Source: an uncultured virus (IMG/VR IMGVR_UViG_3300047322_000678)
Lineage: Duplodnaviria > Heunggongvirae > Uroviricota > Caudoviricetes
Reading direction: 5' to 3' (one strand)
Virus record (IMG/VR): IMGVR_UViG_3300047322_000678
Length of the DNA stretch: 64,000 nt
The notes under the pieces are model-generated. The model searched no databases. It was given only the letters and a program-made list of their open reading frames with translations, and had not been told where the DNA came from. Every line of letters starts with the position of its first letter. The stretch's first letter is position 1. A program made the translations under genes and the position numbers. Below are positions 1,891-38,822 of this stretch, in pieces.

Positions 1891-3498
1891 TCAGTACCCA
1901 ACTTCAACGAAATGTGCATGTGCCGTAAAGCGGATCGATGTAGCGGCAAATCCGGTCATGGCAATGGCAAGTGCCTTATTCACGTTATCAGCGGCGACAC
2001 TGGCATTCCCGACCACACCCCATGACCCGCCTGTTCCGTCAGCAATCATGGCAGTAGTCACAGCGGAAATTAAAGTTACTGTATTAGCATTGTTTTGTAT
2101 CCCGAACTTGACTTCCCAAACCGCACAAACCCCAGCCGAGGATCGACCCACGATGGTCATAACACCTCCCCAAGTTGTATTGTTCGGGATAATGGCGCGT
2201 TGTGTTGCCGACACCCCATCCAGAAATAATTCAGTTGGGGTTGCATCAGTGGTTGCCGCCCTCCAAATAAGTTCAGAAGCTTGCGCGTCACCTGCTGCTG
2301 CAAATTGTCCGGAAGAATTTGATCGTTGCCCATGCTTGTTGGCTAGTGACTGAATTCCACCCGCCCAAGATGATGGACCTGACGCTGTGCTGGTGTTTCC
2401 AGAAGCAACAGCGTTAGTGCCGGAAGCAATGTTGGCGCTTCCTCCAAGAACAGCAGCATTTTGACCCGAAGCCAGATTATTTGCACCGGCAAGAACCGAG
2501 GAGTTAGTTTGTGTTGCTTGATTAGTCGTGCCCCCACCAACAAACGCAAATGATGCCGAAGCCAGATTTGCGGTCCCTCCAGCCACAGCCGAATCTGATC
2601 CGCTGGAAGTGTTTCCGCTCCCTCCAGATACGCTTGATCCGACTCCAGTTGCGGCATTACCAGCTCCTCCAGCCACAGAAGCCCAGGTCTGACTAGCTTT
2701 ATTGTCAATTCCACCGGATACAGTTGACCATGCTCCGCTAGCCACATTTGCCGCTGCCGAACGGTCGCATTGCAGATCCACCGCCTTACTGCCCCGCGCA
2801 TTCCCGCCGCTGGGCGTGGACTGGATCGCGCCATCATCGGTGATGAGCAGTTTCGAGTCCTTAACCGCCATCGGGGTTCCGGTCGTGCCACTGAACCTTG
2901 GAATATCATTCGCATTCGTGACTGTGTTCGGCGTGATCGTGGCGTAGTTCAGGCCCGTTGGCTGAGACGAATCCGCAACCAGAGCCTTGCCATCGGTGCC
3001 GACACCGAGACGGACCAGAGCCGCATTGGGATTGTTCGCGCCCGTGTCCGCGAGCACGTCACCCTTCGTCGAGCTGGGCGACAACTGATTCAGTGTCACG
3101 CTCGGAGCAGATCCAGCCGGTCCTTCTAATCCTCCCGGCGATACCTGCTGCGGAGCCGTGATGGTCGCAGCCGGTGCGGCATTGCCCGTGTAGCCCAGAT
3201 TCTTCAGGGTCAGACTTCCAGCCGCGATTCCTGTGACCTGATAGTAACCGCCTGTGGCCACGAATACGGTCTGACCGTTTGCGGCCCAAGATGAATCGGC
3301 TACGGTAACGGTTACACTTGCTCCGGAAGCTGGCTGGACAAAATTGGCGGCGGTAACGGTGAAGGCGTTGATCCCGTTTGTGCCGTTCGATCCATCGTTC
3401 CCATCTTGCCCCGGAGGTCCAGGGACTTGCTGACTTACTGTGTCGGTACAAACCGGCGCACAGCATCCGGATGGTCCTATATTTACTGGTGCAGACAT
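1891..3498 (-). CDS. Tail fibre / adhesin with short collagen-like stretch and GGxxNxAxG beta-roll repeats
   Basis: GPPGQDGNDGSNGTNG near the N-terminus; tandem V(S/A)GGxxNxA(S/T)G repeats resembling YadA-head-type repeats. Confidence 0.75.
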   Translation of the reverse strand: MSAPVNIGPSGCCAPVCTDTVSQQVPGPPGQDGNDGSNGTNGINAFTVTAANFVQPASGASVTVTVADSSWAANGQTVFVATGGYYQVTGIAAGSLTLKNLGYTGNAAPAATITAPQQVSPGGLEGPAGSAPSVTLNQLSPSSTKGDVLADTGANNPNAALVRLGVGTDGKALVADSSQPTGLNYATITPNTVTNANDIPRFSGTTGTPMAVKDSKLLITDDGAIQSTPSGGNARGSKAVDLQCDRSAAANVASGAWSTVSGGIDNKASQTWASVAGGAGNAATGVGSSVSGGSGNTSSGSDSAVAGGTANLASASFAFVGGGTTNQATQTNSSVLAGANNLASGQNAAVLGGSANIASGTNAVASGNTSTASGPSSWAGGIQSLANKHGQRSNSSGQFAAAGDAQASELIWRAATTDATPTELFLDGVSATQRAIIPNNTTWGGVMTIVGRSSAGVCAVWEVKFGIQNNANTVTLISAVTTAMIADGTGGSWGVVGNASVAADNVNKALAIAMTGFAATSIRFTAHAHFVEVGY

Positions 3499-4840: not shown

Positions 4841-5266
4841 CTATCGTTTTCCTTTCATGGCCTGACACATCGCAACCGAAGCCAGAAACTCGTCTCGCGG
4901 GTTCACGATCTGGCGCTTGTCCTTGATCATTTCCAGAGCTGAATGCAAGCTGTAACCGCCCTGCCTTGACAAGTGCGCGGCAACAATGCTCGGTGCCCGA
5001 CTCCGCCCTTTGATGCAATGGACCAGAACCCGCTTGCCCTTGCTGACCAATTCGCTCAGAGCATCGACGGCCCGGTTAATTTCGGCACAGGAATTTTGTT
5101 CGTCATCGGTCAGCGGAACATGCCGATATTCCACGCCTTGAGGATGGCCGTAATTTACTTCGGACGCCACATTCACAATCGCATCGAACCCGTGTTCAGC
5201 CGCTGATTCGGGATGGTCTGATTCGGCGCAGATTGAGATGCTTTTGGTCACGTGACTGATCGGCAT
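4841..5266 (-). CDS. Dual-specificity protein phosphatase
   Basis: VLVHCIKGRSRA = HCxxGxSR active-site loop; upstream VPLTDD general-acid loop; C-terminal IKDKRQIVNPRDEF. Confidence 0.85.
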   Translation of the reverse strand: MPISHVTKSISICAESDHPESAAEHGFDAIVNVASEVNYGHPQGVEYRHVPLTDDEQNSCAEINRAVDALSELVSKGKRVLVHCIKGRSRAPSIVAAHLSRQGGYSLHSALEMIKDKRQIVNPRDEFLASVAMCQAMKGKR

Positions 5267-5318: not shown

Positions 5319-7097
5319 ATGGCAAAAGTCGCTCCGCCAAAACCGCCCCAGATCAGCATCGAAGAATTTCAACAGGTCCGGGAGAATTTCGCCCAGCGCG
5401 GGCCGGGAGACAGGGTGGAACAGTTCAAAACCCTCGCAACTCATTTGCTCCCCGGATGGTTCGAGTTCCACTCATGGTGTAATAAGATTATCGAAGCCGG
5501 TTGTAAGCATCGCTGGATAGGGGAAAGTGGGTGTTCAAACAGCTCGAAAACTCGGCATACGGCTGGATTCGCCGCAGTCTGGTGGCTGGCTGATCCCGAG
5601 AACAGCGCGGTCTGTTTCTGCTCAACCACGATGAAAATGTTGAGAAAAAGAGGCTGGGCCGAAATTCAAGACATCTCAAATAAAATCGAAGGGTGGGGCA
5701 ATTTTGTAAATTCTCAATGTGTGTGGCAAGTGACCCAGGGAGACGACAAGCACTGCATTTTCGGCAAGGCGGTTTGCGAAGGTGACACGAATAAAGTTGC
5801 GGCTGATATTCAGGGTTTGCACGTAAAGCGCCTGATGATCGTCATCGACGAAGCCGAAGCGGTTCCGGCTGCGATCTGGAAAGCTTGCGCCAATCTCTAC
5901 GGATACTGTGAAGATGTTGGGGGCGAGTTCGTCTTGTTCGCAATCGCCAATGCCCGATCCCGACTGAGCCAGTTCGGAAGATTTATCGAGCCGGAAGATG
6001 GATGGAATTCTGTCAGCGTCGATTCTGACGAGTGGATGAGCAAGCCGCAAATGGACGGAAGAAAAGCCAAGGTTCTGCGGTTTGATTTTCTTAAAAGCCC
6101 GAACATTGTCGAAGGAAAGCTTGTCTCGCGCCATCTTCCAACCCGACAACGAGTTGATAATCGGATGGCGGCACTCAGGGCGCGAGGTGGAGAGAACGAT
6201 CCCGATCACTTCACTTACGACCGAGGCTACCCAGTTCCCGAAGGTCTGCTCAAGACTGTATTCACCGAAACCTTAATCGCCAAGCACGATGGTTACGGTC
6301 GGCATAAATTCTTAGGAACAAATTTCAGGATTATCGGCGCGTTCGATCAAGCCTTTGGTGGCGGCGACCGGCCCGCGCTCAGATTTGCCGCAATGGGCGA
6401 CATTGAAGGTAACAAGCTGGGCCTTGAATGGATGGAGGCGATTATCCTGTATCTGGACGCGAACAGCCCTGACCCGGTTCGGTATCAACTCAAGGACAAG
6501 TTAAAGCAAGCCTGCGAGAACGTAGAATATCGCGGACAGAAATATCAGTGTCGCCCCGAGGACTTGGCCATTGACTGCACCGGCGACGGCGGTTTGGCCG
6601 ATATTTGCCATCAGGAATGGTCCTCGAAAATAAACCGAATCATATTCAGCGAATCTCCGAGCGAATCGCCTGTATCCAATGAAGATGAACGCAGTTCCAA
6701 GGATGTATTCCTGAACAAGCGGGTGCAGATGTATTTCCAGACCCGAGACGCGCTCATTGCCGGTCAGATCAAGGGAATCGACAAAGACACAGCGGCGGAA
6801 CTCTGCAACCTGGAAGAATTGATTGAGAAATCAGACGGCACGATCCGGCCCAAGAAAACCTTGCAGACCAAGAAGGATTACAAGCTCAAGTACACGGTCA
6901 GTCCTGACTTGAGCGATTCAGCCGTGATGCTGACCGAAGTGGCCCGCATCAAGGGCTTCTCCGTCGCCGCTGTGGGCCTGACCGTATCCCGCGAAGGCGC
7001 CCTGGAGCAGATAGTAAAAGACTCGCAAGACCTGTACAATCCCGATTCGTTCTACTCCGCCGAGAACGACGAGGTTCTGGTCGAGGACGAATGGTAA
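5319..7097 (+). CDS. terL: Terminase large subunit
   Basis: 592 aa; Walker A-like GCSNSSKT, Walker B IVIDEAE, motif-III-like IANA, nuclease motifs GAFDQAFGGGD, AIDCTG and SPDLSDS. Confidence 0.8.
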   Translation: MAKVAPPKPPQISIEEFQQVRENFAQRGPGDRVEQFKTLATHLLPGWFEFHSWCNKIIEAGCKHRWIGESGCSNSSKTRHTAGFAAVWWLADPENSAVCFCSTTMKMLRKRGWAEIQDISNKIEGWGNFVNSQCVWQVTQGDDKHCIFGKAVCEGDTNKVAADIQGLHVKRLMIVIDEAEAVPAAIWKACANLYGYCEDVGGEFVLFAIANARSRLSQFGRFIEPEDGWNSVSVDSDEWMSKPQMDGRKAKVLRFDFLKSPNIVEGKLVSRHLPTRQRVDNRMAALRARGGENDPDHFTYDRGYPVPEGLLKTVFTETLIAKHDGYGRHKFLGTNFRIIGAFDQAFGGGDRPALRFAAMGDIEGNKLGLEWMEAIILYLDANSPDPVRYQLKDKLKQACENVEYRGQKYQCRPEDLAIDCTGDGGLADICHQEWSSKINRIIFSESPSESPVSNEDERSSKDVFLNKRVQMYFQTRDALIAGQIKGIDKDTAAELCNLEELIEKSDGTIRPKKTLQTKKDYKLKYTVSPDLSDSAVMLTEVARIKGFSVAAVGLTVSREGALEQIVKDSQDLYNPDSFYSAENDEVLVEDEW

Positions 7098-7099: not shown

Positions 7100-7723
7100 A
7101 TGCAAGCGAAACTTAGAACCAAGATTGGTTGTCCGTACGGAAATATATTTGAACTGAACCTTCCCGAGAAAGGCATGAAGGGACGCGGCACCAGTTTTGA
7201 GCAACTGATTGGGAACATAAAAGAATGGAGGCGGGCTAACGCTTTTCCAATTGGTCTGGGATTTGAGTCCGAGGTGGAACGGGAGATTTGTGAGCGGTAC
7301 CCGGCTGAATGCCATTCTCCAAACCCATTACTTCCCGATCCTCAAAGAAGGCTCGGCTATGACGCAATCCTTCATGGAACCAGTTCCCTGCTCAGGGTTA
7401 AAAAAGATCCGAACCCGTACGTGGATCAGACCGAAGCAAATCGTAGAGCCGCCATTTGCTCGGCGTGTCCTCAAAATCAAGATTTCGTTCGGCCTTGTGG
7501 ATTTCTATGTGGCGCGTTGAAGGATGCTGTAATGGCTCTGATCGGAAATCGTTCCACGCCCCACGACAATCGGTTAAAGTCTTGTCAAATCTGTCAGTGC
7601 TTTGCGGCGGGAGCAGTTCACATTAGAACTGATCTGCAACTGCTAGACCTGAGCCAAAAACAGTTGGACCAGTTCAAAGAGGCTCACGCTCTTTACGGGT
7701 GTTGGAAAGTTTTACCCGGATGA
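7100..7723 (+). CDS. Cys-rich hypothetical phage protein
   Basis: RRAAICSACP, CGFLC and CQICQC motifs; directly follows terL. Confidence 0.6.
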   Translation: MQAKLRTKIGCPYGNIFELNLPEKGMKGRGTSFEQLIGNIKEWRRANAFPIGLGFESEVEREICERYPAECHSPNPLLPDPQRRLGYDAILHGTSSLLRVKKDPNPYVDQTEANRRAAICSACPQNQDFVRPCGFLCGALKDAVMALIGNRSTPHDNRLKSCQICQCFAAGAVHIRTDLQLLDLSQKQLDQFKEAHALYGCWKVLPG

Positions 7724-8424
7724 GAACATTTCTTATCTACCGGAGTTTCAAGAGCCTGCTGATCTGTCATGCCTCGCTTCACTCTTTTTTTGAAGGTGGC
7801 CCTGTTCAATCCAATTATCCTTAGCCATTGAGCGAGAGTTTTCACCTCTCCCCGCCACGGAATCATCCTGTTAGTCGAAGTATTATTTGCTTGAGCCTCC
7901 GATGTGTCCCATTTGCAATTCATCGGCCATCCTTCCTTTAGACATTGCTCACAATGTCCACAAGAATAATGTCCGTTATTGTTCTTTCTCTCGATTGACA
8001 ATCCTTCCGGCCTTTTCCCCATGTCGTTGAAAAAGTTTTCAAAACTCATCCATCCGAAACAAATTTTTATACCCCTTTCAGAATATCGCTTCCTGCCTGG
8101 ACAATTTGGATTCAAGGTTCTGTTTTTCATTCCAGCCCACGTAGAGTACTCTACAGTTGTTGATCCCCCAGCCGTGTGACCGTGAGTGGTCATCAATTCA
8201 CGAGTCCTTTGAGATACAAGCTCGCTTCTCAAACAGCCACAGGACGATGTATTTGCGATCAAATTTCCACGAGAGACAATTGTAATAGCTCCGCAATCAC
8301 AGAGACATTTCCATAATGATTCTCGGTGCCTGTTTTTACCGACATATTCAAGCACTAGCAATCTGCCGAATCTTCTCCCGGTCAGATCGATAAACCTTGG
8401 ATCAGTTGGATGTGGAATTTGCAT
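7693..8424 (-). CDS. HNH-type homing endonuclease
   Basis: DLTGRRFGRLLV, WKCLCDCG, SCGC, SIERKNNNGHY...NCKW motifs. Confidence 0.8.
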   Translation of the reverse strand: MQIPHPTDPRFIDLTGRRFGRLLVLEYVGKNRHRESLWKCLCDCGAITIVSRGNLIANTSSCGCLRSELVSQRTRELMTTHGHTAGGSTTVEYSTWAGMKNRTLNPNCPGRKRYSERGIKICFGWMSFENFFNDMGKRPEGLSIERKNNNGHYSCGHCEQCLKEGWPMNCKWDTSEAQANNTSTNRMIPWRGEVKTLAQWLRIIGLNRATFKKRVKRGMTDQQALETPVDKKCSHPGKTFQHP

Positions 8425-8563
8425 AGTAAAAAGCCCCGACCGAAAAGCTCAGTCTGCCTGAAAGAAATCGGCAGTAGTCGGACGGGGCCAGAATTGGTTG
8501 ATGTTGCGCTGAGACGCATATCGGGAAGGATGGGTTACGGGACGGGTTCTGTCAACAAAACGA

Positions 8564-9253
8564 TCAAGTTAATTGAAGCACTTCCTGAGAGAGCCGGTTC
8601 GCTGCTGTCTCGCAGTACCGTTCCTCAATCTCGATTCCGATTGCGCGACGGCCAAGGTCTTTGGCGGCTCGCAAGGTGGTGCCGGAACCCATGTATGGGT
8701 CTAAAACGATGCCGGTCGATTTACTGAATCCCAAGCACCACCTAATTAACTCGGCGGGCTTCTGACATGGATGCAATTTTGGACCATTAGCAACATTATC
8801 TTCCCCTTCACGAACAAGCCCTCGCCAAAGCTGTCTCCAGATGCGAGTGGACATATCTATATTTGTCCAGCAAAGCTCACAATCTCCAAAAGCGCATGGC
8901 TCTTTATCGCCAAGCTTGTCCCAAATCAACCATCCCCTAGAATCTGGAAGCTTCGATGCGTAATTATTTGCACCCCACAGCATCACTTCCTTGATGCCAA
9001 GAAAGGGTTCAGGATCAAATGGTGTATTATCTCCATTTTGAAGCGGCATCCAGGACGGATCTCGAACAATTTGTTTACCTGAATTTTTTCCAAAATCTAA
9101 GCCTGTTTTTCTGGATCTGGTTGCGTTTACCTTGAACCCTATTCCATACTGAGGATCTGTTAATACCAAATCCACCATCGGAACATACGGCAGTATCTCC
9201 CGACAATCCCCGTGATAAATCACGATCTTCCCGTCATCGTAATACGGTTTCAT
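8564..9253 (-). CDS. DNA N6-adenine/N4-cytosine methyltransferase (beta class)
   Basis: Motif IV variant LTDPQY, HPCQKP, motif I VLDPYMGSGTT, GIEIEERY. Confidence 0.9.
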   Translation of the reverse strand: MKPYYDDGKIVIYHGDCREILPYVPMVDLVLTDPQYGIGFKVNATRSRKTGLDFGKNSGKQIVRDPSWMPLQNGDNTPFDPEPFLGIKEVMLWGANNYASKLPDSRGWLIWDKLGDKEPCAFGDCELCWTNIDMSTRIWRQLWRGLVREGEDNVANGPKLHPCQKPAELIRWCLGFSKSTGIVLDPYMGSGTTLRAAKDLGRRAIGIEIEERYCETAANRLSQEVLQLT

Positions 9254-9441
9254 TCCCCCTCCCTCATCTCCTCCACCGCCCGATCCGCCTCTGCCTTTGC
9301 CAGTTTAGCTTGGGCCGGGGTGATGTCGCCGTCATCGGCCAGGATTCCGAGCCTCTCCTGGTACAAATAAAACCATTCCTGTCTCAATTCAGTTTCAGTA
9401 ATTTGAACTCGTCCTCCCAGGCTCGATTTAGGTTCTAGCAT
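9250..9441 (-). CDS. Hypothetical protein
   Basis: 63 aa ORF coupled to neighbours; YQERLGI motif. Confidence 0.5.
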   Translation of the reverse strand: MLEPKSSLGGRVQITETELRQEWFYLYQERLGILADDGDITPAQAKLAKAEADRAVEEMREGE

Positions 9442-9656
9442 AATACGTACACCTTCACTTTCTTTATCCGCTCCGTCCCGACCGAAGTCAATCCCTGAGC
9501 ATGGCGATTGGCCCGGAGCCGGCGCATGGACTCGCGGATAAGGGAACGTCTCTGGACCAGTTCCGGAGTGACCGGGACCGGAACAGGTTTCTTGAGCCAG
9601 CCATTAGCCAGGCCGATAGCGACGAGGGATTGGGGGGTGGGTGCGGAGCGGGTCAT
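9435..9656 (-). CDS. Hypothetical protein
   Basis: 73 aa basic ORF within the operon. Confidence 0.45.
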   Translation of the reverse strand: MTRSAPTPQSLVAIGLANGWLKKPVPVPVTPELVQRRSLIRESMRRLRANRHAQGLTSVGTERIKKVKVYVLC

Positions 9657-9816
9657 AAACTTTCTCTAAATTGTTTCAGCATCCTGGCCAGTTTAGCTCG
9701 TTGAAGAATCCTGTCTGGACTTTCAGGTTTTCCAGAAACAGGACGAAACTCATTCTGTTTCTTGACCTGTTTAGCTTCGCTAGATTCCTGAGCGATTCGG
9801 TTTAATTGTTCCAGTG

Positions 9817-10464
9817 TCATCTTAGTGAAAAATCGGTCGCATCGGTTTCAATTACAACCCCATTGTCCCGCAACATGCGAGAGGCAATCCGGGCATCTAA
9901 TCGCTCCGATATTTCTGGAAGGCTGAGGTTCGTTGTGATCAGTGTCCACTTTTTCTGACGTGAGTTCAGTATTCTATCCAGCGCCGACGCAATAAATCCG
10001 GTCGGGTCACGCTCCGAACCAATATCATCCAGAATCACAAACCATTCATCGCAGAGTTGGTCAATGTGATCGTAGGCACCGCTCCGGACAGCATCACAGA
10101 AATCGCGCCAGTTCACGAACTCTCCGGTATTGCCGTAAGTCTTTTGCCGGATAGAATCAAACATGATGTCGAAGCGGTTCTGTTGCATGAACTGCCGATA
10201 AACGGCTTTGGCCAGATGCGTCTTTCCGACACCGCTCTTGCCGCACAAGGTCAGCCAGTACGGGGTCGTGTAATTGATTGATGCAGCAAAATCTCTTGCC
10301 ACATCAAACAGACGCTCCAGCTTCGGGTCGTTGAACGTCTCGAAGTGCGCGACGTTTTTGAATCGCTTCAAGATTGTAGTCTTGGGAGTTCCCTGCGTTG
10401 AGGGTGCCAGCGTTTCGGTCAAAACTTTGCTTACCGTTTTTGCGAGTGGAGTTTCTTGGATCAT
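9817..10464 (-). CDS. DnaC/IstB-like AAA+ helicase loader
   Basis: GKSGVGKTHLA, VILDDIGSE, TLITTN and RIASRM motifs; lies downstream of the initiator. Confidence 0.88.
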   Translation of the reverse strand: MIQETPLAKTVSKVLTETLAPSTQGTPKTTILKRFKNVAHFETFNDPKLERLFDVARDFAASINYTTPYWLTLCGKSGVGKTHLAKAVYRQFMQQNRFDIMFDSIRQKTYGNTGEFVNWRDFCDAVRSGAYDHIDQLCDEWFVILDDIGSERDPTGFIASALDRILNSRQKKWTLITTNLSLPEISERLDARIASRMLRDNGVVIETDATDFSLR

Positions 10465-11134: not shown

Positions 11135-11266
11135 GAATCCTCAATGCCGCCCCCGGCTGTGACGCCCAATAGCAACCTGTGAAGGAAGCAGAGAGCGGCA
11201 TGGAAGATTCGTTGCTGATATTCTGCGTCACACTCAAACTTTCCCAAACCTGCTCTGTTTCGTCAA
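11135..11266 (-). promoter_or_regulatory. Sigma70-like promoter and structured leader of the initiator gene
   Basis: TTGACG-N17-GAAAGT; 20-bp imperfect stem 11135-11154/11191-11210 ending at the ATG. Confidence 0.55.
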
Positions 11267-11326
11267 CAGAAAAATAATTTTATTTTGTTGTGGACACATC
11301 CTGTGCCACATGGCAAAGTGCGGGGG

Positions 11327-11548
11327 ATGAAACTGAAACAGGATCGGGTCGTGTGCTGGGACTGCGGCGGAACTGGCAAGGTTCTAAAGGTTCAAGGCTG
11401 CACCTTGACCAAGGCCCGTAAATCCGCCGGCCTCACCGTCGAAGCCCTGTCCAAGCGCACGGGCCTGTCCGTGTCCTTGCTCTACAAGGTCGAGAACGGG
11501 GTGAGGACGTGTACGAAACGGGTGGAGAAGGCGTATTCCAATCTATGA
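11327..11548 (+). CDS. Cro/XRE-family HTH regulator with N-terminal CxxCxGxG motif
   Basis: CWDCGGTG followed by ARKSAGLTVEALSKRTGLSVSLLYKVENG; divergent from the replication genes. Confidence 0.8.
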   Translation: MKLKQDRVVCWDCGGTGKVLKVQGCTLTKARKSAGLTVEALSKRTGLSVSLLYKVENGVRTCTKRVEKAYSNL

Positions 11549-12106
11549 CCATCCCCGCCTGTCCAGAATGTCAGTCCCGGCTCGTGGAACGTGTCCGGGA
11601 GAAGCACGAATCGGGCGTGATTAAGGTCTGCTTCTGGCTGTGCCATGCTTGCGGCTGGACCTGGGGCTTTGAATAATGACTTTTGCCAATCCGATTATCG
11701 GCACCGGGATCTGGAACTGGTGAGATACATGTATTAACCCGGTGGGCTGGCTTGTTGCTGGCCGTTGGCTGGATTTGAATGAAACCTAAACTCGATCCGT
11801 ATCAAGCCCTGTGCCGAACCATGCTGGCCGGGTTCTTCGCCGTGGGATGGGGCGGGCCAATGGCAAGAATCGGGGCCAGGAACTTGTATGAACGATACCG
11901 GAAACGGTTAAAGAGACTGGAAAGGAATGGGAAATGACCTGCACCTTAGCAACGCTGAAAGTTATCCGGCCTGGAAAAGGTCTTGGCCAGCGCACGGTCT
12001 TAAGACGGTTCGATAAGCACGGGACCATGCTCGGTGAACATACCGGCCCCAGGGCCAATGCCGTGGCGGGGAGTCTGAGAAGGATGGGGGTATCCGTTAT
12101 CAGAAT

Positions 12107-13015
12107 ATGATCCCGCCCTATCCGCCCAGCTATCACCCGCCCCTGTTCTCGCCTAAACATGCCGAGTTCCGGGCCAGCTTAGGTTCGGTAATGGCCCGAA
12201 CTGTTCCGGTCGTACCCGATTTTGTCCCGGTCGGGTTCGTGATTACCAACCTGACTATTTCTGGCGGCACCGCAACATTAGCCTGGCAGAATGGTTCCGC
12301 ACCATTCTCGATTCTTGGCTCGTCCGATCTGAACCTGTGGTCGGTTATTGCCGGGCCTGTGTCCAACTCGCCAGTCACATTCAATCCCGGTTCCAACCGT
12401 TATTTCCGGCTGCTCTGCGCTGACGGATTGACCAATCTGATCACGATCCTGGATGATAACAGGTTCGGGACCGCGACCACAGACGTTTACTGGGCAGGTG
12501 CATGGATTGATCATGTCACATTCGGATCTAACGATTGTGCCGTTGGCGAGGGTTGTTGTCTGCCCGGAGATCGGAAGCTGCTCCGGTTCCCGGTCACGAT
12601 CTATAATCCGTCCAGCAACACGTTCTGGTCCGGGCCAGCCGGTGACTATTATTTCTATGACCCGTGCCATCATCATTTTCATATAACCAATTTCTCACAG
12701 TTCACGCTCTTGAACGAATCCGGCACTGTCGCTGCCGACCGCAAGATGGGTTGGTGCGTTCGATCCTTTGGCCGGCTCATCGACTTGGGCTGGAACACGA
12801 ACCCGCCCCCATCGGCTTGTACCCAGCCGCAACTGATGCCGGGTTGGGGTGATACCTATAATCTACAGGATTGTATGTGGTTCGATGTGACCGGGTTCCC
12901 GGACGGGATCTATACCATGCGAATTGAGCTGGATGTCACCGGCCAGTACGGGTTCCGGCAACGGTCGGAGCATGGCATTGTGATGATCGTGGAACAGGTA
13001 GGGCCGTGGCCATGA
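12107..13015 (+). CDS. Lysyl oxidase (LOX) domain protein
   Basis: CAVGEGC, RKLLRFP, Cu site CHHHFH (HxHxH), LTQ Lys in KMGWC, LTQ Tyr in GWGDTY and DCMWFDVTGFPDGIY, all collinear with the LOX catalytic domain. Confidence 0.85.
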   Translation: MIPPYPPSYHPPLFSPKHAEFRASLGSVMARTVPVVPDFVPVGFVITNLTISGGTATLAWQNGSAPFSILGSSDLNLWSVIAGPVSNSPVTFNPGSNRYFRLLCADGLTNLITILDDNRFGTATTDVYWAGAWIDHVTFGSNDCAVGEGCCLPGDRKLLRFPVTIYNPSSNTFWSGPAGDYYFYDPCHHHFHITNFSQFTLLNESGTVAADRKMGWCVRSFGRLIDLGWNTNPPPSACTQPQLMPGWGDTYNLQDCMWFDVTGFPDGIYTMRIELDVTGQYGFRQRSEHGIVMIVEQVGPWP

Positions 13016-13123
13016 ACAAATACTTTTCCCATCTCTGGCGCTATGTTGACCGGGGAGAACCCGGCCACCCTTCTCGGAACGGTTTGTTGTTGGGCATGAA
13101 ACAGGAACCGGAGATGATAATTT

Positions 13124-13456
13124 ATGAGAAAAACCGAATCAATTGCTGACCCGACCTGGAACGATATTAAAGACCGGGACCAGAGAATGGTGACACTGGA
13201 AATGTTATTGAACAAAGAAAAGGTTGAGATTTATGATCTGAAAACGAGGCTGATTAAGGCCGAAGCCATCCTCGACAAGTTCGGGTTCCGGCATTGCACC
13301 ATCCCGTCCTGCAACTGCAACGGGTATCATCTGATGACGCCACCGGACAAGTCGTACCGGGAGGCGATTAAGGCCAGAGAAACACATGGCGATCCGGGTC
13401 CGGGGCGAGATCCGGCATTGCCCGGACCACGCGAGTTGAACAGGATTAAGAAATGA
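13124..13456 (+). CDS. Hypothetical protein
   Basis: 110 aa; coiled coil followed by CTIPSCNCNGYH. Confidence 0.5.
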   Translation: MRKTESIADPTWNDIKDRDQRMVTLEMLLNKEKVEIYDLKTRLIKAEAILDKFGFRHCTIPSCNCNGYHLMTPPDKSYREAIKARETHGDPGPGRDPALPGPRELNRIKK

Positions 13457-13755
13457 AATCTACCGGATACAAAGATTCAGACGGGAAACTAATTCGTGAC
13501 GGCGATATTCTGGAGGTTGGTTCACGGCTCCGTGGGATGAGGAACAGCCACTGCATCTGACTTTCAGAGTCGGTAAATTATGCGGAGAATGGTTCTGTCA
13601 CGGCATTGAAACCGGAACTGAAGATGATTTCCTAGCCAATTTCAAATCGCTCAGGAAAAAAACTGACCCGACCATTTCCTCCCGCCGTGGACCGGCAGCA
13701 ATCACGCTCCCGGTCAATCCAAGCAGGACAATGACACAGCGGGAGGATTAGATTT

Positions 13756-13962
13756 ATGTTTGAACCCAGTTTACAGGAAGTGATTCGGCAACGGGATGCG
13801 GCCAGAAAAAGATTGGCTCATTTCCGAAATGCTTTACTGGAGATTTCTGACTTGTATAGAAGGCGGGATCTGCTCGGACATATTCCCAATGCTCCTGACG
13901 ATGAAACCCGACTGGACCCGCTCCTGTACGCTTCCAAAATAGCTAAACAGGCTTTGATATGA
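13756..13962 (+). CDS. Hypothetical protein
   Basis: GGAGG upstream; ATGA-coupled to the next ORF. Confidence 0.5.
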   Translation: MFEPSLQEVIRQRDAARKRLAHFRNALLEISDLYRRRDLLGHIPNAPDDETRLDPLLYASKIAKQALI

Positions 13963-14168
13963 CCCGCACCCAATACCTCAACATCTCCGATTTCGCCCGC
14001 GTCAATGCTGCGCTGGCCGTGCTGGCTGAATGTGATGCTGTGGAAAGAATAGAATCTGTAGAGGCTCTGGTCCGGTATCAGCGCCTGCTCCTGACCCGGC
14101 AGGAACAAGCTTGTCAGGGCAGGCCGGATAATGTCGTGGAACCGGATCTGACGGTGGTGGAGAAATGA
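13959..14168 (+). CDS. Hypothetical protein
   Basis: Coupled small ORF. Confidence 0.45.
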   Translation: MTRTQYLNISDFARVNAALAVLAECDAVERIESVEALVRYQRLLLTRQEQACQGRPDNVVEPDLTVVEK

Positions 14169-14169
14169 T

Positions 14170-14523
14170 ATGACTAAAACATTTTGTGATGTGTGTGACC
14201 GGCCTGCGAGCCATCAGAGAATCCAGACCAGTTTCCGAATCCGCCATGAAAAAGATGTGCTGGAAGATCTGGCTGCTTTCATAGAGATCAAATGGACGCG
14301 AGCGCCGATTCCAGACCTGTGCGATTCCTGCTTCGCCAAAGCTTTGCGCGAGGCGGCGAATAAGCTGGATCCGCCATCGGGAGATCCAATGCCGTGTCCT
14401 GAAAATATACCAACAGTGACTGCACGGTGGACCAGCAGCCCACCGGCAGGAGTTGAGCCGTGCCAGAAACCTGAACATTTTCCGGATGAAGCCAGCAAGG
14501 AATGGTTCGAGGGTAAGTCCTGA
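14170..14523 (+). CDS. Zn-finger hypothetical protein
   Basis: FCDVCD...DLCDSC motifs. Confidence 0.55.
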   Translation: MTKTFCDVCDRPASHQRIQTSFRIRHEKDVLEDLAAFIEIKWTRAPIPDLCDSCFAKALREAANKLDPPSGDPMPCPENIPTVTARWTSSPPAGVEPCQKPEHFPDEASKEWFEGKS

Positions 14524-14572
14524 GACGGATCCGCGCTGGCTCAGAAAAAGGCATTTGACAAGGGGTGGGGGG

Positions 14573-14797
14573 CTATTCCTTATCCGCTCCGCAATCCATC
14601 CTGATCTGTTCCACTGATTCCTGTATCCAATCAAAAACCTGTGACTGATACTGGTCCGGAATTGAGCCTTGCTTACCAACAAACAGGGACCGCTTACCGG
14701 CCACGGTGATGACCAGTTTGTGTCCTTCAATTTCCAGCAAGAACAATCGGTCGTAGCCCTTCGGGATATTGAAATTAACCGGAATCTTCATGGTCAA
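14573..14797 (-). CDS. Hypothetical protein
   Basis: ATGA-coupled to 14794..15363. Confidence 0.45.
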   Translation of the reverse strand: MTMKIPVNFNIPKGYDRLFLLEIEGHKLVITVAGKRSLFVGKQGSIPDQYQSQVFDWIQESVEQIRMDCGADKE

Positions 14798-21722: not shown

Positions 21723-22070
21723 ATGAAAGCGTTAAGTTTAGACCTGATAATGACAGGCGCATCAACTCACGTTGATGGAAGTCTCGGTCTAAAGTTCAGT
21801 ACCGCCGAATTGCAACCAAGTGAGAAAACAACTGTTTTTGAATTGCTCAATCAGAATTTGAAAGTTTTGATACAACCTTCAGGGGAAGCTCCAGAGTCAC
21901 TTGTTGAAGTTAAAACTCCGTTGAATTTCAAAAGTCCAAGTAGCCGGTTCCGTTCAATTTTATACATAGAGTGGAAACAGAAACAACCCGACATGACGTT
22001 CGATGAGTTTTATTTACGCGAGATGGAAAAGCTCTGCGAACGCCGCAAGTCCATGCTTCAACCAGAATGA
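21723..22070 (+). CDS. Hypothetical protein
   Basis: DGSLGLKFST...KSPSSRFRSILY pattern. Confidence 0.55.
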   Translation: MKALSLDLIMTGASTHVDGSLGLKFSTAELQPSEKTTVFELLNQNLKVLIQPSGEAPESLVEVKTPLNFKSPSSRFRSILYIEWKQKQPDMTFDEFYLREMEKLCERRKSMLQPE

Positions 22071-22525
22071 ATAAGATGAAATGTTCTATTGAATCGTGCA
22101 ACCGTCCCGTACACGCACGTGGATTGTGCGGTGCCCATTATCAGCGAAACAGATTATCTTCTAAAGGAATAGATCCGCAAAGGCCAGTTGGAGCCAGATC
22201 TGGAAAATATAGCGCCACATGGAAAGGCGGAACATTTCGCACTGTTGATGGTCGGGTTTTGATTATGGACGTAACTCATCCACATCCTGATTATTTGAAA
22301 AAATACGTCTTTCGTTATCGTTCGGTAATGGAAAAGCATATTGGTCGTTATCTTGAACGTTCCGAAATAATCCATCACAAAAACGGAATTGTAGATGATG
22401 ATCGCATTGAAAATCTTGAAATAACCAACAGAGCAGATCATATAAATCATCACCGTAAGGAACTTACGGAGGCTAGACTTGCAATGTATGCGCGTCGTAA
22501 ATCCCAACTCGAACCTGAAGTATGA
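22067..22525 (+). CDS. HNH endonuclease
   Basis: CSIESC...GLCGAHY, WKGG, EIIHHKNGIVDDDRIENL...HINHH. Confidence 0.85.
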   Translation: MNKMKCSIESCNRPVHARGLCGAHYQRNRLSSKGIDPQRPVGARSGKYSATWKGGTFRTVDGRVLIMDVTHPHPDYLKKYVFRYRSVMEKHIGRYLERSEIIHHKNGIVDDDRIENLEITNRADHINHHRKELTEARLAMYARRKSQLEPEV

Positions 22526-24324: not shown

Positions 24325-24686
24325 AAAGAACGTTTATCACAATCGGATTAGTCCTGACCGCAACCGCCAGTTTTTATTTGCTCCGGCCCGCTGCCAAAGC
24401 TGCTGCTGACCGGATCCCGGTCCATGATGTGGTTGTGATCCAGCTATCGTCAACTGGGCACAGTTTCAATAATGAAAACGGATACTCGTACCAGTATCAG
24501 GGCTTGGTGATCTGGAACTCCAGCAGCAGCGCCAACGCACCCAAGTTCCCGAACGAGGTAATCCCGTCCATCGACAATACCTATCTGACTAATGCAGCAG
24601 ATGGAATTGCTCAGATTCTGGACCAGGGCTTCGCGCGGGTCAGTGACGGGAAGGACGGAACGATTACGTTCGTCCGAACCCGTTAA
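24321..24686 (+). CDS. Secreted or membrane-anchored hypothetical protein
   Basis: MKRTFITIGLVLTATASFYLL signal/anchor sequence. Confidence 0.55.
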   Translation: MKRTFITIGLVLTATASFYLLRPAAKAAADRIPVHDVVVIQLSSTGHSFNNENGYSYQYQGLVIWNSSSSANAPKFPNEVIPSIDNTYLTNAADGIAQILDQGFARVSDGKDGTITFVRTR

Positions 24687-26752
24687 GGCGTTATTTCAAT
24701 AACGAAACTGTTTCCGAAACTGTTCGGAGCGGTTAGGCTGACACCTGATTGACCAAATCGAGTCGTGTCATTGAAATTTCCCGTTGCAAGACAGTTTCCA
24801 CTGTTTGGATCAATGGATATTCCGTTTACGCCGTCGCTTTTAGGTCCGTCAATTTGAACGTACCAGATCACGGATCCATTCGCCGCGTTAAGTTTTAATA
24901 CAACCCCGCTATAGGCCGAACTCGTCAACGCTATTCCATTAGGCAAAACAACTCCCGTCTCAGCGTTGCCGTTAAAATTGAAAGCTATCACCGGATTGCT
25001 ATTTTTGTCCAAAACCATCCAGGACATAGCCCCGTTATCTCCGGTAATGACACATTTCTGTTGCCATGAAGTTCCTTGCACATACACGCCATCAGAAGCT
25101 CTGTATTTTGCAACTCCAACATTGTTCAACTGGCCGGTTGTCATGTTTATTCCAGCCCCTAAATCACATAGTCCTGAAACATCAAAGAGGCAATAAAGGT
25201 TTCCCTGACCGTCCAGCGACAAGTAAAAACATTGAGAGGATGTTGCTGGCGGATTTGCATGAGTGCCAGGACCTGGTGTTGTATTGGGGGTATCTCCACC
25301 ACGTCGGAATGACCACTGATGGATTCCGTTATTGTCGAATTTTCCAACATACGCCTGTTTATACGTAAGATTAGATGTATAGATTGTGTGGCTTCCGTCA
25401 TTGCCAGGGTTGTTGTAAGCTAGGTCTATTGAGTAGTAAAAATTGCCACCGATATAAACATTATCGGTCGAATCAATGGTTATTCCAAGACCCTGGTTTA
25501 CGGTGCCGAAAACAACTGCCGGAAACGAAATGTTCCAGAGAAAGTTTCCGTCTTTATCGTATTTAGCTAAAACCGATTGCGTGAACTGCTGATTCACTAC
25601 AATCGGAGCGCCTCCGAATGAGCATCCGTTACCCTGGAAATATCCGATGCAAAACATGTTCTGGCTTGAATCAAGCACGCAGCCCGTGAACTCACAAAAC
25701 CGAGACAGATCGGCAATAACATAGCCATGTGACCAGAGATGATTTCCGCTGCTGTTATATTCAGCGTGCCATGCTCCTGTGCTGGTACATACGAAATTGC
25801 TTCCACCGAAATTGCCGGTGCCCGTGAATATTCCGCAAAGAAAAACATTCCCAGAAGGGTCAACGTCGATTCCATTTACAGCTATATCACCTGCGCCACC
25901 GTAACTCTTGGACCAGACATACTCTCCGCCCGACCTGAACTTCGCGATGTACAACGAGTAAGATCCCGGAGAAGATACAAGATCCGCTCCGCCCATGTTC
26001 TGGGTGCCCTTGAAATAACCGGCAACGATATAATCACCGCTCGCCAGAACTTTGATTACCTTCCCGACAGAGGCAAGAGTTGAATTGAACCCGACCGCTC
26101 TAATCACAGTTCCAGACGCATTCCCGGCCAAACTCGGGCTGTTATACGGCACGGTCACGCCGTTGGCGGTGATTTCCCGGATCCGATACGCGACCGGGGA
26201 TGGGGTTGAATCTTGAGCAGATCGGACCCCGACCGCAAACGGACTGCCGGTGATGCCGGACCAGTTCGTGCCGTTGTCGGTACTCTTTTCAACGATGAAG
26301 GGGGTCAATGAATCAGCCATAGTCGTATCAGGCGCGTTCCAGGTTAGGCGCGGTTGGGTGTTGGTTGCGAGATTGAGCTGGCCCGGTGCCTGAGCCTGCA
26401 CCTTCCAGAATTGATCCTCCCCGAGAGATACCGTGTTGGATTTGCCCAGTAAAAAATTGCCCTGCACCTGCCACGGCCCTTGCAATGTTGGACTGGCCCA
26501 GACTTGGAACGGGCCGGTGCCTCCGGTCCATTGCAGAACCGTTTTCCCGCCCATCACATCCACGGTTATGTTCGTGATGCTGAAACCAGTTACAGCTTGG
26601 GGCGTGACCTTTACGGGCGCAGCCTGAGATCCCTGCACCCGCATCGGGATGCGTTGCTCCCTCGATTTTGGAGATTCGGTTATGGTCGGAATCTGCCACG
26701 GGAGCGGGGGCAGGCCCGTGACGGCCAGCAGAAGAAGTGTTGTGATCGTCAT
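24683..26752 (-). CDS. Secreted beta-propeller (SBBP-like repeat) protein with N-terminal beta-sandwich modules
   Basis: Hydrophobic N-terminus; repeats GIDVDPSGNVFLCG, LDSSQNMFCIG, IDSTDNVYIGG, AKYDKDGNFLW; own promoter-like TTGCTT-N17-TAGAGT. Confidence 0.75.
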   Translation of the reverse strand: MTITTLLLLAVTGLPPLPWQIPTITESPKSREQRIPMRVQGSQAAPVKVTPQAVTGFSITNITVDVMGGKTVLQWTGGTGPFQVWASPTLQGPWQVQGNFLLGKSNTVSLGEDQFWKVQAQAPGQLNLATNTQPRLTWNAPDTTMADSLTPFIVEKSTDNGTNWSGITGSPFAVGVRSAQDSTPSPVAYRIREITANGVTVPYNSPSLAGNASGTVIRAVGFNSTLASVGKVIKVLASGDYIVAGYFKGTQNMGGADLVSSPGSYSLYIAKFRSGGEYVWSKSYGGAGDIAVNGIDVDPSGNVFLCGIFTGTGNFGGSNFVCTSTGAWHAEYNSSGNHLWSHGYVIADLSRFCEFTGCVLDSSQNMFCIGYFQGNGCSFGGAPIVVNQQFTQSVLAKYDKDGNFLWNISFPAVVFGTVNQGLGITIDSTDNVYIGGNFYYSIDLAYNNPGNDGSHTIYTSNLTYKQAYVGKFDNNGIHQWSFRRGGDTPNTTPGPGTHANPPATSSQCFYLSLDGQGNLYCLFDVSGLCDLGAGINMTTGQLNNVGVAKYRASDGVYVQGTSWQQKCVITGDNGAMSWMVLDKNSNPVIAFNFNGNAETGVVLPNGIALTSSAYSGVVLKLNAANGSVIWYVQIDGPKSDGVNGISIDPNSGNCLATGNFNDTTRFGQSGVSLTAPNSFGNSFVIEITP

Positions 26753-27447: not shown

Positions 27448-28200
27448 TCATTTCCTCACCAGATCCGCATCAGTCACGAGCTGGGCCACATCGAATCCCT
27501 CTGGGCTTTTACCGGCAATCAGATAATCGGCTGAGATCATGGCCACAGCTTCATCACAGTACTTGCTGATGAACTGTTTCGTCAATGGCTGGAGCTGTCC
27601 CCAAGTGACACAGACCGGATCTTTCCGCTGCGCGACTATCGGCACATAATGCCCGCCCTGTACTCGAGAGCCACCGACCGGGGACCAGGGCTGACCGTTG
27701 TCGAACTGATCCATTGCTGAATCGGGAAATTCAATCCCAAGCCCGACCACGCCGAACAGATAAACCGAGGCCATAATGTGATCGACATTGCCCGGTTCCA
27801 GCCAGAGATACGCGCCGATCTTATGGCGTTTGCCCGAAGCATCGAGAATTCCTGTTTGCCGCCGATACTTAGCAGCATCGTGCATATCCGTGCCTTGATC
27901 GCTGCTTGGTTCTGCCGTGTTGTATCCGGTCACAACCGAATAATCGGACAGGACACAGGCATCATTGAACTGAGCTGTAGCGGGATCTCCAGCAGCGGTC
28001 CATAATTGAGTCTCGTGCGCGGCACCAGCCCAGACACAATCACCGACTGAATCATTCCCGAGCATGGGCCAACTCGAAATCAACGCTTCATGCCCGAACT
28101 GGTCCGGTATCGGTGGCAGTTTGGCCATGTCCAGATACCGGGACATGAGCAGATCCCGCCGATCATACCGGGCTGGACGCTTGCCGAGTTTGAAACTCAT
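27448..28200 (-). CDS. Papain-like (C1-related) cysteine peptidase
   Basis: MLGNDSVGDCVWAG (catalytic Cys), DQGT, GGHYVPIV (His), TWG. Confidence 0.65.
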   Translation of the reverse strand: MSFKLGKRPARYDRRDLLMSRYLDMAKLPPIPDQFGHEALISSWPMLGNDSVGDCVWAGAAHETQLWTAAGDPATAQFNDACVLSDYSVVTGYNTAEPSSDQGTDMHDAAKYRRQTGILDASGKRHKIGAYLWLEPGNVDHIMASVYLFGVVGLGIEFPDSAMDQFDNGQPWSPVGGSRVQGGHYVPIVAQRKDPVCVTWGQLQPLTKQFISKYCDEAVAMISADYLIAGKSPEGFDVAQLVTDADLVRK

Positions 28201-28674: not shown

Positions 28675-29118
28675 TCATTGCAGATGCGGCGAGGTCAGAG
28701 CCGGCCCCATCGAATGTTTCTTCATCCGGCCATTGACAGGCAGACCGTTCACCATGCCCAGACACAGATCCTGGCTGTAAAGCGCGATCTCGTTGGTCTT
28801 GGGTCCGATTGCGGCCACGACTGTATTTAACAAGGCCAAACCCCCGTTCACGATCAGAATCGTGTTCTGGTTCGTTAGATGAGCCGCACTGAGAGCCGCC
28901 ACAATCGCGGCAGGATTGGCGTTGGTTCCGTGCGCCACAGAACAGACCACCTCAGACGCAGCCCGAATGTCCGGGGTCACTTCCGGGTGCTGGATCAGGG
29001 CGTACTGTTCAGCCAAGGTCACGCTCTGTTGAAACAGGGCATGAGAGATTGGGGATGGGGTTTTGCAGGCGCAGAGCGCGAGCAGGGGCAGGATGCAGAG
29101 CAGATTCAATTTCTTCAT
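28675..29118 (-). CDS. Lipoprotein
   Basis: MKKLNLLCILPLLALCAC lipobox. Confidence 0.6.
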   Translation of the reverse strand: MKKLNLLCILPLLALCACKTPSPISHALFQQSVTLAEQYALIQHPEVTPDIRAASEVVCSVAHGTNANPAAIVAALSAAHLTNQNTILIVNGGLALLNTVVAAIGPKTNEIALYSQDLCLGMVNGLPVNGRMKKHSMGPALTSPHLQ

Positions 29119-29380
29119 AGATTTAGTTTCGGTTTGGTGCCGTCCAATTATGTCACAGTCACATGGAGAACCGCAATGGGTGGCGCAGTACTCTCCTGAG
29201 CACATTTTGCACCCGTCTTGGTTTTCAACCGACCATGTGCATGGAACATTCATTTTCCAACCAGAACAGCGATGGCCAAGAGCAGGACCGCCACAGCCAC
29301 CAGCGGCCATTGCGGTTTGATTATCCCGGCCACGGACAGGACGATGGACAGGACCACGAGGATATTGAAAGGGGTTGGAC

Positions 29381-30400: not shown

Positions 30401-30796
30401 ATGAAGTGGTACATCAAACGATCTAAGGTGTTACGGGATCTTGGCTTTACCAGTTACCAGCATTACTTGGCCAGTGATCTTTGGAAGCAGGTTAAGAGAA
30501 AGGTCTTTCAGATCAAAGGCAAGTCCTGCGAGCTGTGCGGGCGGCCCGCTGCAACGGTTCATCACAACCGTTACTGCCTTGGATCAATGTTGGGCAGGCG
30601 ACTCAAGTTTCTGATCCCGATCTGTCATGCTTGCCATGAGGAAGTGGAATTTGATGGAGACAAGAAACTGAGTCTGGGTCGGGCGAGGCAGAAATGCAAG
30701 CTAAGGATCAAGGAGCACCGCTCGACAACCAATCTGGTTTCCTTGATCCTGAATTATGATGCGGAAGATGCTGGCATGGCCGGGCCAATAACGTGA
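30401..30796 (+). CDS. HNH endonuclease
   Basis: YLASDLWKQ, CELCG, VHHNRY, LIPICHACHEEV. Confidence 0.8.
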   Translation: MKWYIKRSKVLRDLGFTSYQHYLASDLWKQVKRKVFQIKGKSCELCGRPAATVHHNRYCLGSMLGRRLKFLIPICHACHEEVEFDGDKKLSLGRARQKCKLRIKEHRSTTNLVSLILNYDAEDAGMAGPIT

Positions 30797-32307: not shown

Positions 32308-32743
32308 TTAATGCCCGCATTCGCAATACGATTCAATCGGGCAAGACGCGACAGCGCAGGCATTACTGCTATTGCAGTTTCCGAAAATATAAAACCTCGC
32401 CCAACAAGTGCTGTTAGGCATTTTGATCTCCGCAGTGTCAACGTTTCCATTTTGACAGACCATCGTAATAAACACCACAGTTTGACCGCCATAACTGCAC
32501 TGAGGTCTAGCGCAGCCTGACAAGTCAATGGTGATTATGGCCGCTGGGGGCTTTAACCGTATCAGTGCAGCTATTTCCGTAACTAACATAGCATCCATGA
32601 GTTGGTCCTGTGCAATCTGTCGGGGTGCACGCCCGACCTCCAGATGGGCCAACGTATATAAAACTCACCGTGGCACATGGAGGAGTTGCCATGCATGACG
32701 TAATAACAAATAGCAGACCAATAATTACAAATAGTTTCTTCAT
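32308..32743 (-). pseudogene. Cys-rich secreted protein split by a frameshift (or two overlapping ORFs)
   Basis: 32525..32743 (signal peptide, Cys-rich) continues in the +1 frame as the Cys-rich IITIDLSGC...CECGH; C5 run at 32546-32550. Confidence 0.45.
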
Positions 32744-38587: not shown

Positions 38588-38822
38588 AGGTTACTGATCC
38601 TTTCTGGGTTAAGGCTGGTTCGGGAGGTGGCGCGGGAGAGAACGCAATAACTCCCGCGCCTGACCCCGACCCGAAACAAACCAATGTGGGGAGGGAAAGT
38701 AAAACTACTTTAGGAATAGGGTTGACAGTTTGGCTATTAAGCGTAAAGTGTCTCCATAGTGCTCCCGCGCTGTTGATGCAGCGGGGAGAGAAACGAATAA
38801 CACCATTGAAGAAAGGTGCCTT

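Follow-up and report, generated by a model that had tools for sequence, protein, structure and literature searches.

A lysyl oxidase-family gene with a predicted copper and quinone-cofactor site on tailed-phage DNA from soil

Locus, family assignment and catalytic domain

Lysyl oxidase (LOX) is the textbook animal matrix enzyme, a copper enzyme that cross-links collagen. We analysed a LOX-family gene carried by a 64,000-nucleotide stretch of DNA from an uncultured member of the Caudoviricetes (IMG/VR record IMGVR_UViG_3300047322_000678), here called the window. The gene lies in a plus-strand block of small genes headed by a helix-turn-helix (HTH) regulator gene, directly behind a 58-residue open reading frame (ORF) (Table 1). 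A first-pass annotation, made from the sequence alone, had described its product as a phage-encoded LOX with an intact site for copper and the lysine tyrosylquinone (LTQ) cofactor. The six LOX-like motifs that it quoted were all found in the ORF at 12107-13015 and in the order claimed, and the codons of CHHHFH fell at 12665-12682, as it had placed them.

The family assignment was examined by profile and sequence searches. Pfam profile PF01186 (Lysyl_oxidase) matched residues 155 to 276, equivalent to profile positions 51 to 173 of 204, with a score of 44.1 bits (E 2.5e-11); the curated gathering score is 20.4 bits, and the profile match that had been proposed as a check was thus well above the cut-off. 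A phmmer search of all PDB sequences returned human LOXL2 (5ze3; E 1.5e-8) and no other credible match. Because of these two E values, the resemblance to LOX was judged to be far beyond chance. No family for the protein was present in NCBIfam or PHROGs.

The residues of the active site were compared with those of LOXL2, with residue n of the 5ze3 chain taken as LOXL2 residue n+317. According to the available part of PMC5899467, the metal ligands of LOXL2 are H626, H628, H630 and Y689, and the LTQ precursors are K653 and Y689. In an alignment of 73 sequences, the columns of the corresponding window residues H188, H190 and H192 held histidine in 72, 72 and 73 sequences, respectively, and K213 and Y251 were invariant (73/73). 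At the level of alignment, these comparisons showed that the protein carries the full LOX catalytic residue set. Six cysteines were also kept in at least 90% of the 73 sequences. C187, C217 and C256 paired with LOXL2 C625, C657 and C695 in the phmmer alignment, and their partners, C144, C150 and C238, were assigned by spacing alone; three of the five disulfides of the LOXL2 catalytic domain would then be kept.

An AlphaFold2 model built on the 73-sequence alignment had a mean predicted local distance difference test (pLDDT) score of 80 to 96 in ten-residue blocks over the catalytic domain. The sole significant match of the predicted structure in a Foldseek search of the PDB was 5ze3 (E 8e-10). 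With VIA-align, the model superposed on 5ze3_A with a Z score of 18.3 and a root mean square deviation of 2.4 A over 182 residues, and the runner-up, an unrelated sandwich fold, had a Z score of 8.2. In the LOXL2 crystal itself, a distance of 16.6 A separates K653 from Y689. The superposition on LOXL2 that had been suggested earlier therefore gave a match (Foldseek E 8e-10; VIA-align Z 18.3), at an identity of 17-20% in the structural alignments. Overall, sequence and modelled fold indicated that the window ORF is a true lysyl oxidase-family protein.

The first-pass annotation had noted that the usual ESDxxNN end of LOX is missing. This was correct, although the motif is replaced and the C terminus is not truncated. 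The available text of PMC5899467 gives E722, D724, N727 and N728 as the calcium ligands of LOXL2 and describes the site as structural, not catalytic. At these columns the window protein has F283, Q285, E288 and H289, and its clade (see below) has F, Q, E/Q/R/S (position 288) and H. Among 67 sequences from outside the clade, the motif residues were present in 55 (E), 30 (D), 48 (N) and 50 (N) cases.

Table 1. Coordinates of the LOX gene, its parts and associated features in the window
Feature	Position	Strand	Basis or remark
LOX-family gene (P0001), 302 aa	12107..13015	+	ATG to TGA; PF01186; LOXL2 5ZE3 by sequence and fold
Proline-rich low-confidence N terminus, aa 1-39, with S15-P16-K17..E20	12107..12223	+	pLDDT <50 at residues 1-3 and 7-39
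K17, invariant lysine of the shared motif	12155..12157	+	motif alignment
Beta-sandwich module, aa ~40-105	12224..12421	+	model strands 46-104; homologous to propeller N terminus
LOX catalytic domain, aa ~128-300	12488..13006	+	domain profile aa 131-299; pLDDT; VIA-align
DCAVGEGC = D143-C150	12533-12556	+	from translation
RKLLRFP = R156-P162	12572-12592	+	from translation
CHHHFH = C187-H192	12665-12682	+	from translation
H188-x-H190-x-H192, predicted copper histidines	12668..12682	+	aligned to LOXL2 H626/H628/H630
RKMGWC = R212-C217	12740-12757	+	from translation
K213, LTQ precursor lysine by alignment	12743..12745	+	LOXL2 K653
PGWGDTY = P245-Y251	12839-12859	+	from translation
Y251, LTQ precursor tyrosine and metal ligand by alignment	12857..12859	+	LOXL2 Y689
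DCMWFDVTGFPDGIY = D255-Y269	12869-12913	+	from translation
F283-H289, in place of calcium motif E-x-D-x-x-N-N	12953..12973	+	alignment column counts
58-aa ORF upstream of LOX	11934..12110	+	stop overlaps LOX start (ATGA); no hydrophobic stretch
HTH regulator gene, heading the small-gene block that contains LOX	11285..11548	+	HTH_31, HTH_3
Beta-propeller (SBBP-repeat) protein, 689 aa, hydrophobic leader, same N-terminal module as LOX	24683..26752	-	PF06739; candidate partner
Probable large terminase subunit	5319..7097	+	54% identical, full length, to G167 protein
DNA-modification gene regions, including PurZ-type and glycosyltransferase genes	51372-53329, 41518-42342, 47303-48926, 8564-9253	- (all)

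Relatives, gene start and the module shared with a propeller protein

Proteins with a LOX domain were found to be numerous (1270 at E <= 0.001 among 1.84 billion representatives), many of them long and multidomain. P0002 was the only close representative, and a collection clustered at 90% added four proteins with 53-70% identity. In a tree of 193 LOX domains, the window protein fell in a 12-row clade (Shimodaira-Hasegawa approximate likelihood ratio test [SH-aLRT] support, 97) within a 19-row clade (support, 100). Neither clade contained a row from any named bacterial genome, and the rest of the 19-row clade consisted of metagenome proteins. Across 185,579 species genomes, a scan by pattern detected 33 loci, none with more than 35% identity to the window LOX. 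The 12-row clade has lost the calcium motif, and so have the six rows inspected out of the seven that complete the 19-row clade (all but P0140); most bacterial LOX proteins retain it.

The first-pass annotation had also proposed a search of viral databases for homologues and their neighbours. In IMG/VR, a single-protein query detected no LOX and an alignment-based query detected two loci; a scan of metagenomes detected three LOX loci, one of them on the contig that also holds locus L034 (G001). Homologues were thus found in G001, a 79-kb IMG/VR viral contig (CheckV completeness, 76%), and in L037, a related 15-kb contig, in both cases together with a gene for a beta-propeller protein. Their LOX proteins are 53-54% identical to the window LOX. 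A tblastn search of 50,697 GenBank phage records with LOX gave no match, and none of the viral structures in BFVD truly matched, the highest TM-score (0.30) being with unrelated beta-sandwich proteins. The ratio of nonsynonymous to synonymous substitution rates (dN/dS) between the G001 and L037 genes was 0.07; codon comparison thus showed that LOX is under strong purifying selection in these relatives. Depletion of lysine in LOX as a sign of self-protection was rejected, since LOX domains at large are just as poor in lysine (mean content, 2.6% in the clade versus 1.9% in 180 other domains).

Leaders were called from hydrophobicity only, without a dedicated signal-peptide predictor. The highest nine-residue Kyte-Doolittle mean in the first 35 residues of the window LOX was 1.06, and the seven other clade members examined had a hydrophobic N terminus with a maximum of 2.33 to 3.48. 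The earlier statement that there is no clear signal peptide was therefore accurate, and the window LOX was the only leaderless member among the eight compared. Most bacterial LOX ORFs in the retrieved loci likewise started with hydrophobic leaders. After Met-Ile, the window protein opens at the proline-rich stretch that trails the leader in P0002 and P0003, and its start coincides with the point at which the leader gives way to the mature protein in its relatives. No remnant of a leader was detected upstream of the start in any of the three frames.

Contigs from two further soil or rhizosphere sequencing runs span the start at 12107 with zero differences (covering 11200-12521 and 11916-12815). 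The leaderless start is thus not an artefact of a single assembly. Four other runs from soil or rhizosphere yielded contigs with identical sequence of the LOX region. Window positions 11200-14600 were detected at a word share of at least 0.24 in 13 such runs, all from a single year, and three of these may be the source. As the window LOX is leaderless and lies in a regulatory and replication neighbourhood, its location and timing may differ from those of its relatives.

In front of the catalytic domain, the window LOX carries a module that is shared with the propeller protein encoded elsewhere in the window (Table 1). BLASTP aligned residues 1-113 of LOX with residues 14-130 of the propeller protein (31% identity, E 4e-10). 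The shared module consists of a linear motif, [S/T]-P-K-x-x-E, followed by a beta-sandwich. S15, P16, K17 and E20 were invariant in a 5-row alignment of the module, and the motif lysine was present in all ten module-bearing sequences; K17 may be a recognition or substrate lysine. Within the 836 kb of DNA scanned, the strict motif was confined to LOX and propeller genes. In each of the window, G001 and L037, a profile of the module matched the LOX and propeller genes only, apart from a weak match to the sandwich (E 0.004) at window positions 32743-33111; the small ORF that gives it, at 32740-33060, neighbours the gene at 33866-36781.

The assignment of the propeller protein to PF06739 was just above threshold (20.8 bits, with a cut-off of 20.5). 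It is homologous to the propeller proteins of G001 and L037, and LOX and propeller genes co-occurred in all three phage contigs and were both absent from G167, a related phage genome described below. All three propeller proteins keep hydrophobic leaders. The G001 gene opens with RRKFL, which we take to be a twin-arginine-like leader. The propeller is encoded by one ORF in the window (689 aa) and in L037 (707 aa), and in G001 it was read as two overlapping ORFs (L034 7854-8312, leader and module; 8263-9954, propeller); the split may be genuine, or it may stem from a frameshift or an error in sequencing. A scan of IMG/VR with the propeller protein gave no match. Searches of a word index with the first 115 residues of LOX also returned nothing in either length class (245 and 46 candidates, none scored), which is weak evidence.

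The sandwich part of the module was not specific to phages. In the Atlas, nearly every neighbour was a protein of Verrucomicrobiota, and the additional domains of these proteins varied; with scores below 0.9, this is no more than a lead. The module profile gave 42 matches in 10 of 81 sampled genomes of Verrucomicrobiota (best E 4e-12; at most 13 per genome) and 6 matches in 5 of 81 genomes of Acidobacteriota (best E 7e-5). Five module-rich genomes contained no close LOX, the sole match being one of 35% identity in G002. The distribution of the sandwich suggests that the host, or a donor, may belong to the Verrucomicrobiota.

The phage carrier and other genes of the window

No hallmark genes were detected in the window with Pfam or PHROGs at relaxed thresholds, and the terminase was reached solely through a comparison with G167. 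This IMG/VR genome was found with a 738-residue window protein, and it has 72,551 bp, direct terminal repeats and a CheckV completeness of 100%. Twelve of the 90 window proteins matched G167 with 26-53% identity, in a gene order that is largely common to both. The G167 homologue of the ORF at 5319-7097 matched the terminase large subunit family phrog_2 (E 2.9e-16). Against the PDB, the window ORF itself gave three weak matches (E 0.23-0.77), all to 'Gene 2 protein' chains, which are presumably phage large terminases. Further G167 genes matched tail and virion families. The PHROG matches of the window included a PurZ-type synthetase, a hydroxymethylcytosine (HMC) glucosyltransferase, HNH endonucleases, a DnaC-like loader and a DNA methylase; no tRNA genes were present in the window. 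Because of the phage-type genes, the gene order shared with G167 and the terminase homologue, the window was taken to be part of a tailed-phage genome. The gene is thus phage borne, as first described, and the description of a phage LOX with an intact Cu/LTQ site was borne out, as far as sequences and models go, by the Pfam match, the LOXL2 superposition, the viral homologues and the phage context.

Pfam searches and six-frame profile searches, with G001 as the positive control, detected no LOX domain, N-terminal module or propeller in G167. G001 shares 7 of the 90 window proteins, and its terminase is unrelated to that of the window (hhalign probability, 0.2). In G001, LOX closes a long operon, two bases behind the propeller gene, and converges on the terminase gene. 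On these genomic comparisons, LOX was shown to be an accessory gene that moves horizontally among phages.

In G001, the region that precedes the propeller and LOX genes (L034 2990-6619) encodes a run of small proteins with signal-like or lipoprotein-like N termini and a papain-family peptidase (PF00112). One of the small proteins is 55% identical over 104 residues to the window protein at 28675-29310. A conserved lysis-type cassette around LOX was not supported: the product of the window ORF at 27448-28200 was not similar to the papain-like peptidase of G001 (E 0.70), and it had no clear relative in the PDB.

Several genes for DNA modification were present in the window. The PurZ-type adenylosuccinate synthetase (phrog_1211, 1.2e-56) lies beside a phrog_2971 gene and is 35-40% identical to genes of Vibrio and Rhizobium phages, some of which are annotated as 2-aminooxy adenylosuccinate synthetase. 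A TET-associated glycosyltransferase (PF20691, 4e-45), two S-adenosylmethionine (SAM) methyltransferases and an N6/N4 DNA methylase were also detected. This gene set suggests that the phage genome is heavily modified and possibly substituted with 2-aminoadenine. At least four HNH endonuclease genes were found, at 7693-8424 (-), 42586-43143 (-), 22067-22525 (+) and 30401-30796 (+), two of them belonging to phrog_374, and they suggest homing-endonuclease activity in the genome.

The tail-fibre-like protein at 1891-3498 (-) belongs to phrog_31840, has a weak beta-roll match and begins with six Gly-X-Y triplets (3367-3420). This single run was considered as a collagen-like substrate and was rejected: it is lysine-free and so is no obvious substrate for LOX, and no evidence for a role as substrate was found. 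A gene with a dual-specificity protein phosphatase domain (PF00782, 2.9e-24) at 4841-5266 (-) adjoins the tail-fibre-like and terminase genes. The ORF at 58229-63631 (-) encodes a cysteine-free protein of 1800 aa with 8.9% lysine and no family match, which aligns over ~1050 residues, at 43% identity, with a portion of a 2209-aa ORF of G167. The 971-aa protein at 33866-36781 (-) also has no family match; it contains 1.1% lysine and a signal-peptide-like stretch after an internal methionine and is possibly exported. An Atlas search with the ORF at 38577-39743 gave no usable match.

Proposed role and comparison with known systems

We consider it somewhat better than an even chance that the gene encodes a catalytically equipped LOX-type Cu/LTQ amine oxidase, that it is a mobile accessory of a tailed soil phage with a host possibly among the Verrucomicrobiota, and that the enzyme acts outside the cytoplasm together with the propeller protein. 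We infer here that the protein is an active enzyme, and likewise its place of action, its substrate, its pairing with the propeller and its value to the phage. From the family chemistry as given in the available parts of PMC5899467 and PMC6452851, the protein would make its own LTQ cofactor from K213 and Y251 at the copper site formed by H188, H190 and H192, a step that would need copper and O2. It would then oxidize primary amines, typically those of protein lysines, to aldehydes with release of H2O2 and ammonia, and the aldehydes would condense spontaneously into covalent cross-links. The enzyme could act in the periplasm, on the cell surface or, once the cell has lysed, in the medium. Action outside the cytoplasm appears most likely because of the export-type leaders of the close relatives and the conserved cysteines at three putative disulfide positions. 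The first-pass annotation had suggested that the enzyme may cross-link virion fibres, modify host surface receptors or inactivate host proteins; the signal-type leaders favour an extracytoplasmic target over host cytoplasmic proteins. As LOX and the propeller share a tag and co-occur, the tag would most likely route both proteins to one site or make them act on each other. For the leaderless window LOX, release at lysis would be the simplest route to its place of action.

A more specific version of this role, which we hold to be a long shot, is a two-part cross-linking kit in which both proteins are exported and LOX oxidizes the single invariant lysine of the tag ([S/T]PK..E) to allysine and so rivets the propeller, or LOX itself, onto the host envelope or onto tagged proteins. 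If true, such a kit could block superinfection or remodel the host surface. It would also be the first enzymatic aldehyde cross-linking in a bacterial virus and would provide the first substrate for any LOX of the prokaryotic type.

Several observations weigh against the preferred reading of an extracytoplasmic oxidase that works with the propeller. The window LOX has no leader, lies behind an HTH gene in a block of small genes, next to replication genes, and is 12 kb away from the propeller gene. Two of the five LOXL2 disulfides, 663-685 and 732-746, are without a counterpart, and the calcium motif, "highly conserved" in the LOX family according to the available text of PMC5899467, is absent. 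A clade restricted to phages was not established, with P0002, P0003 and P0006 located on NCBI contigs of 7-16 kb whose context was unseen. With a common beta-sandwich as its basis, the link to Verrucomicrobiota is no more than a lead.

The points concerning the leader and the gene neighbourhood also bear on two other accounts. One N-terminal module with differing C termini is the layout of multi-tailspike phages, and the single module joined here to two different C-terminal domains could dock the propeller, as a receptor binder, and LOX on the tail. A virion-displayed enzyme of this kind would act on the host surface or harden the particle. The missing export leader of the window LOX, the position of the G001 gene behind the propeller gene at the operon end and next to the terminase gene, and the Gly-X-Y-bearing tail-fibre-like protein (phrog_31840, six triplets) are all consistent with this. 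It was nevertheless judged unlikely. Cytoplasmic assembly is at odds with the leaders on the seven other LOX proteins and on all three propellers, one of them twin-arginine-like. Many large cellular proteins of Verrucomicrobiota also contain the beta-sandwich, and the neighbours of the window LOX are regulatory and replication genes. Alternatively, the window LOX may have lost its leader on moving into the early region and may be a mislocalized passenger, recently acquired and functionless or decaying here, within a family that is functional elsewhere. It is the sole leaderless member of the eight compared and is separated from a propeller gene that is adjacent in G001. This account also has a low probability in our judgement: the frame of 302 codons is intact with all of the catalytic residues and the six conserved cysteines, the start lies at the junction of leader and mature protein and is coupled through ATGA to the upstream gene, and contigs from four further runs of soil or rhizosphere carry the sequence unchanged.

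The substrate and the chemistry could also differ from those proposed. The characterised prokaryotic LOX has a relaxed specificity that, in the available part of PMC6452851, extends to various primary amines, several aminoglycosides and polymyxin. The phage enzyme could similarly oxidize free primary amines, for example polyamines, amine antibiotics or amino sugars, in place of proteins, and the benefit would lie in the H2O2 and reactive aldehydes produced or in the removal of a compound. We regard this as quite improbable; no neighbouring gene suggests small-molecule metabolism, and the co-occurrence with a tagged propeller is more easily explained by a macromolecular target. A chance resemblance, or a LOX-like fold without catalysis, could account for the missing calcium motif and the 17-20% identity to LOXL2. 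This explanation is close to refuted, given a Pfam score more than twice the cut-off, a Z score of 18.3 versus 8.2 for the next fold, the retention of all five catalytic residues and the dN/dS of 0.07.

The preferred reading, that of a mobile and extracytoplasmic oxidase, would extend the known accessory genes of phages to oxidative cross-linking. Purifying selection in the phage-borne clade indicates that the enzyme is worth its cost to so small a genome, and co-transfer with one tagged partner narrows the possible substrates to a few candidates. The locus is also a lead to little-known soil phages, possibly of Verrucomicrobiota, that carry PurZ-type and glucosyltransferase genes for DNA modification.

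Prokaryotic homologues of LOX are many; in the literature searched one, from an archaeon, has been characterised, and only in vitro. No phage LOX was found in this literature, which agrees with the statement of the first-pass annotation that no characterised phage LOX was known, and the available text of PMC4448552 reports bacterial and archaeal LOX and nowhere mentions a phage or virus. The characterised protein, HTU-LOX of Haloterrigena turkmenica, is, by its description in the available part of PMC6452851, a single-domain LOX with a hydrophobic leader, like the relatives of the window LOX. It was active with Cu(II) and sensitive to beta-aminopropionitrile (BAPN) only after the hydrophobic N-terminal signal peptide had been removed, which shows that LOX domains from outside the animals can be real enzymes. 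HTU-LOX is archaeal and chromosomal, whereas the window LOX is phage borne. Bacterial LOX-domain proteins have the same domain and catalytic residues and are usually secreted, often as parts of large multidomain proteins; most keep the calcium motif, and those in named genomes are at most 35% identical to the window LOX.

With the animal LOX and LOXL proteins (LOXL2, 5ZE3; PF01186), the window protein shares the predicted fold, the H-x-H-x-H copper site and the aligned lysine and tyrosine of LTQ. Unlike LOXL2, it has no SRCR domains or propeptide and carries an unrelated beta-sandwich in front of the catalytic domain. It further differs in being phage borne, in the absence of a signal peptide from the window copy, in the replaced calcium ligands and in an identity of only ~20%. 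What is new here is a leaderless LOX on an unrelated phage backbone, with a lost calcium site, a lysine-bearing tag shared with a second protein and a co-distributed propeller as that protein.

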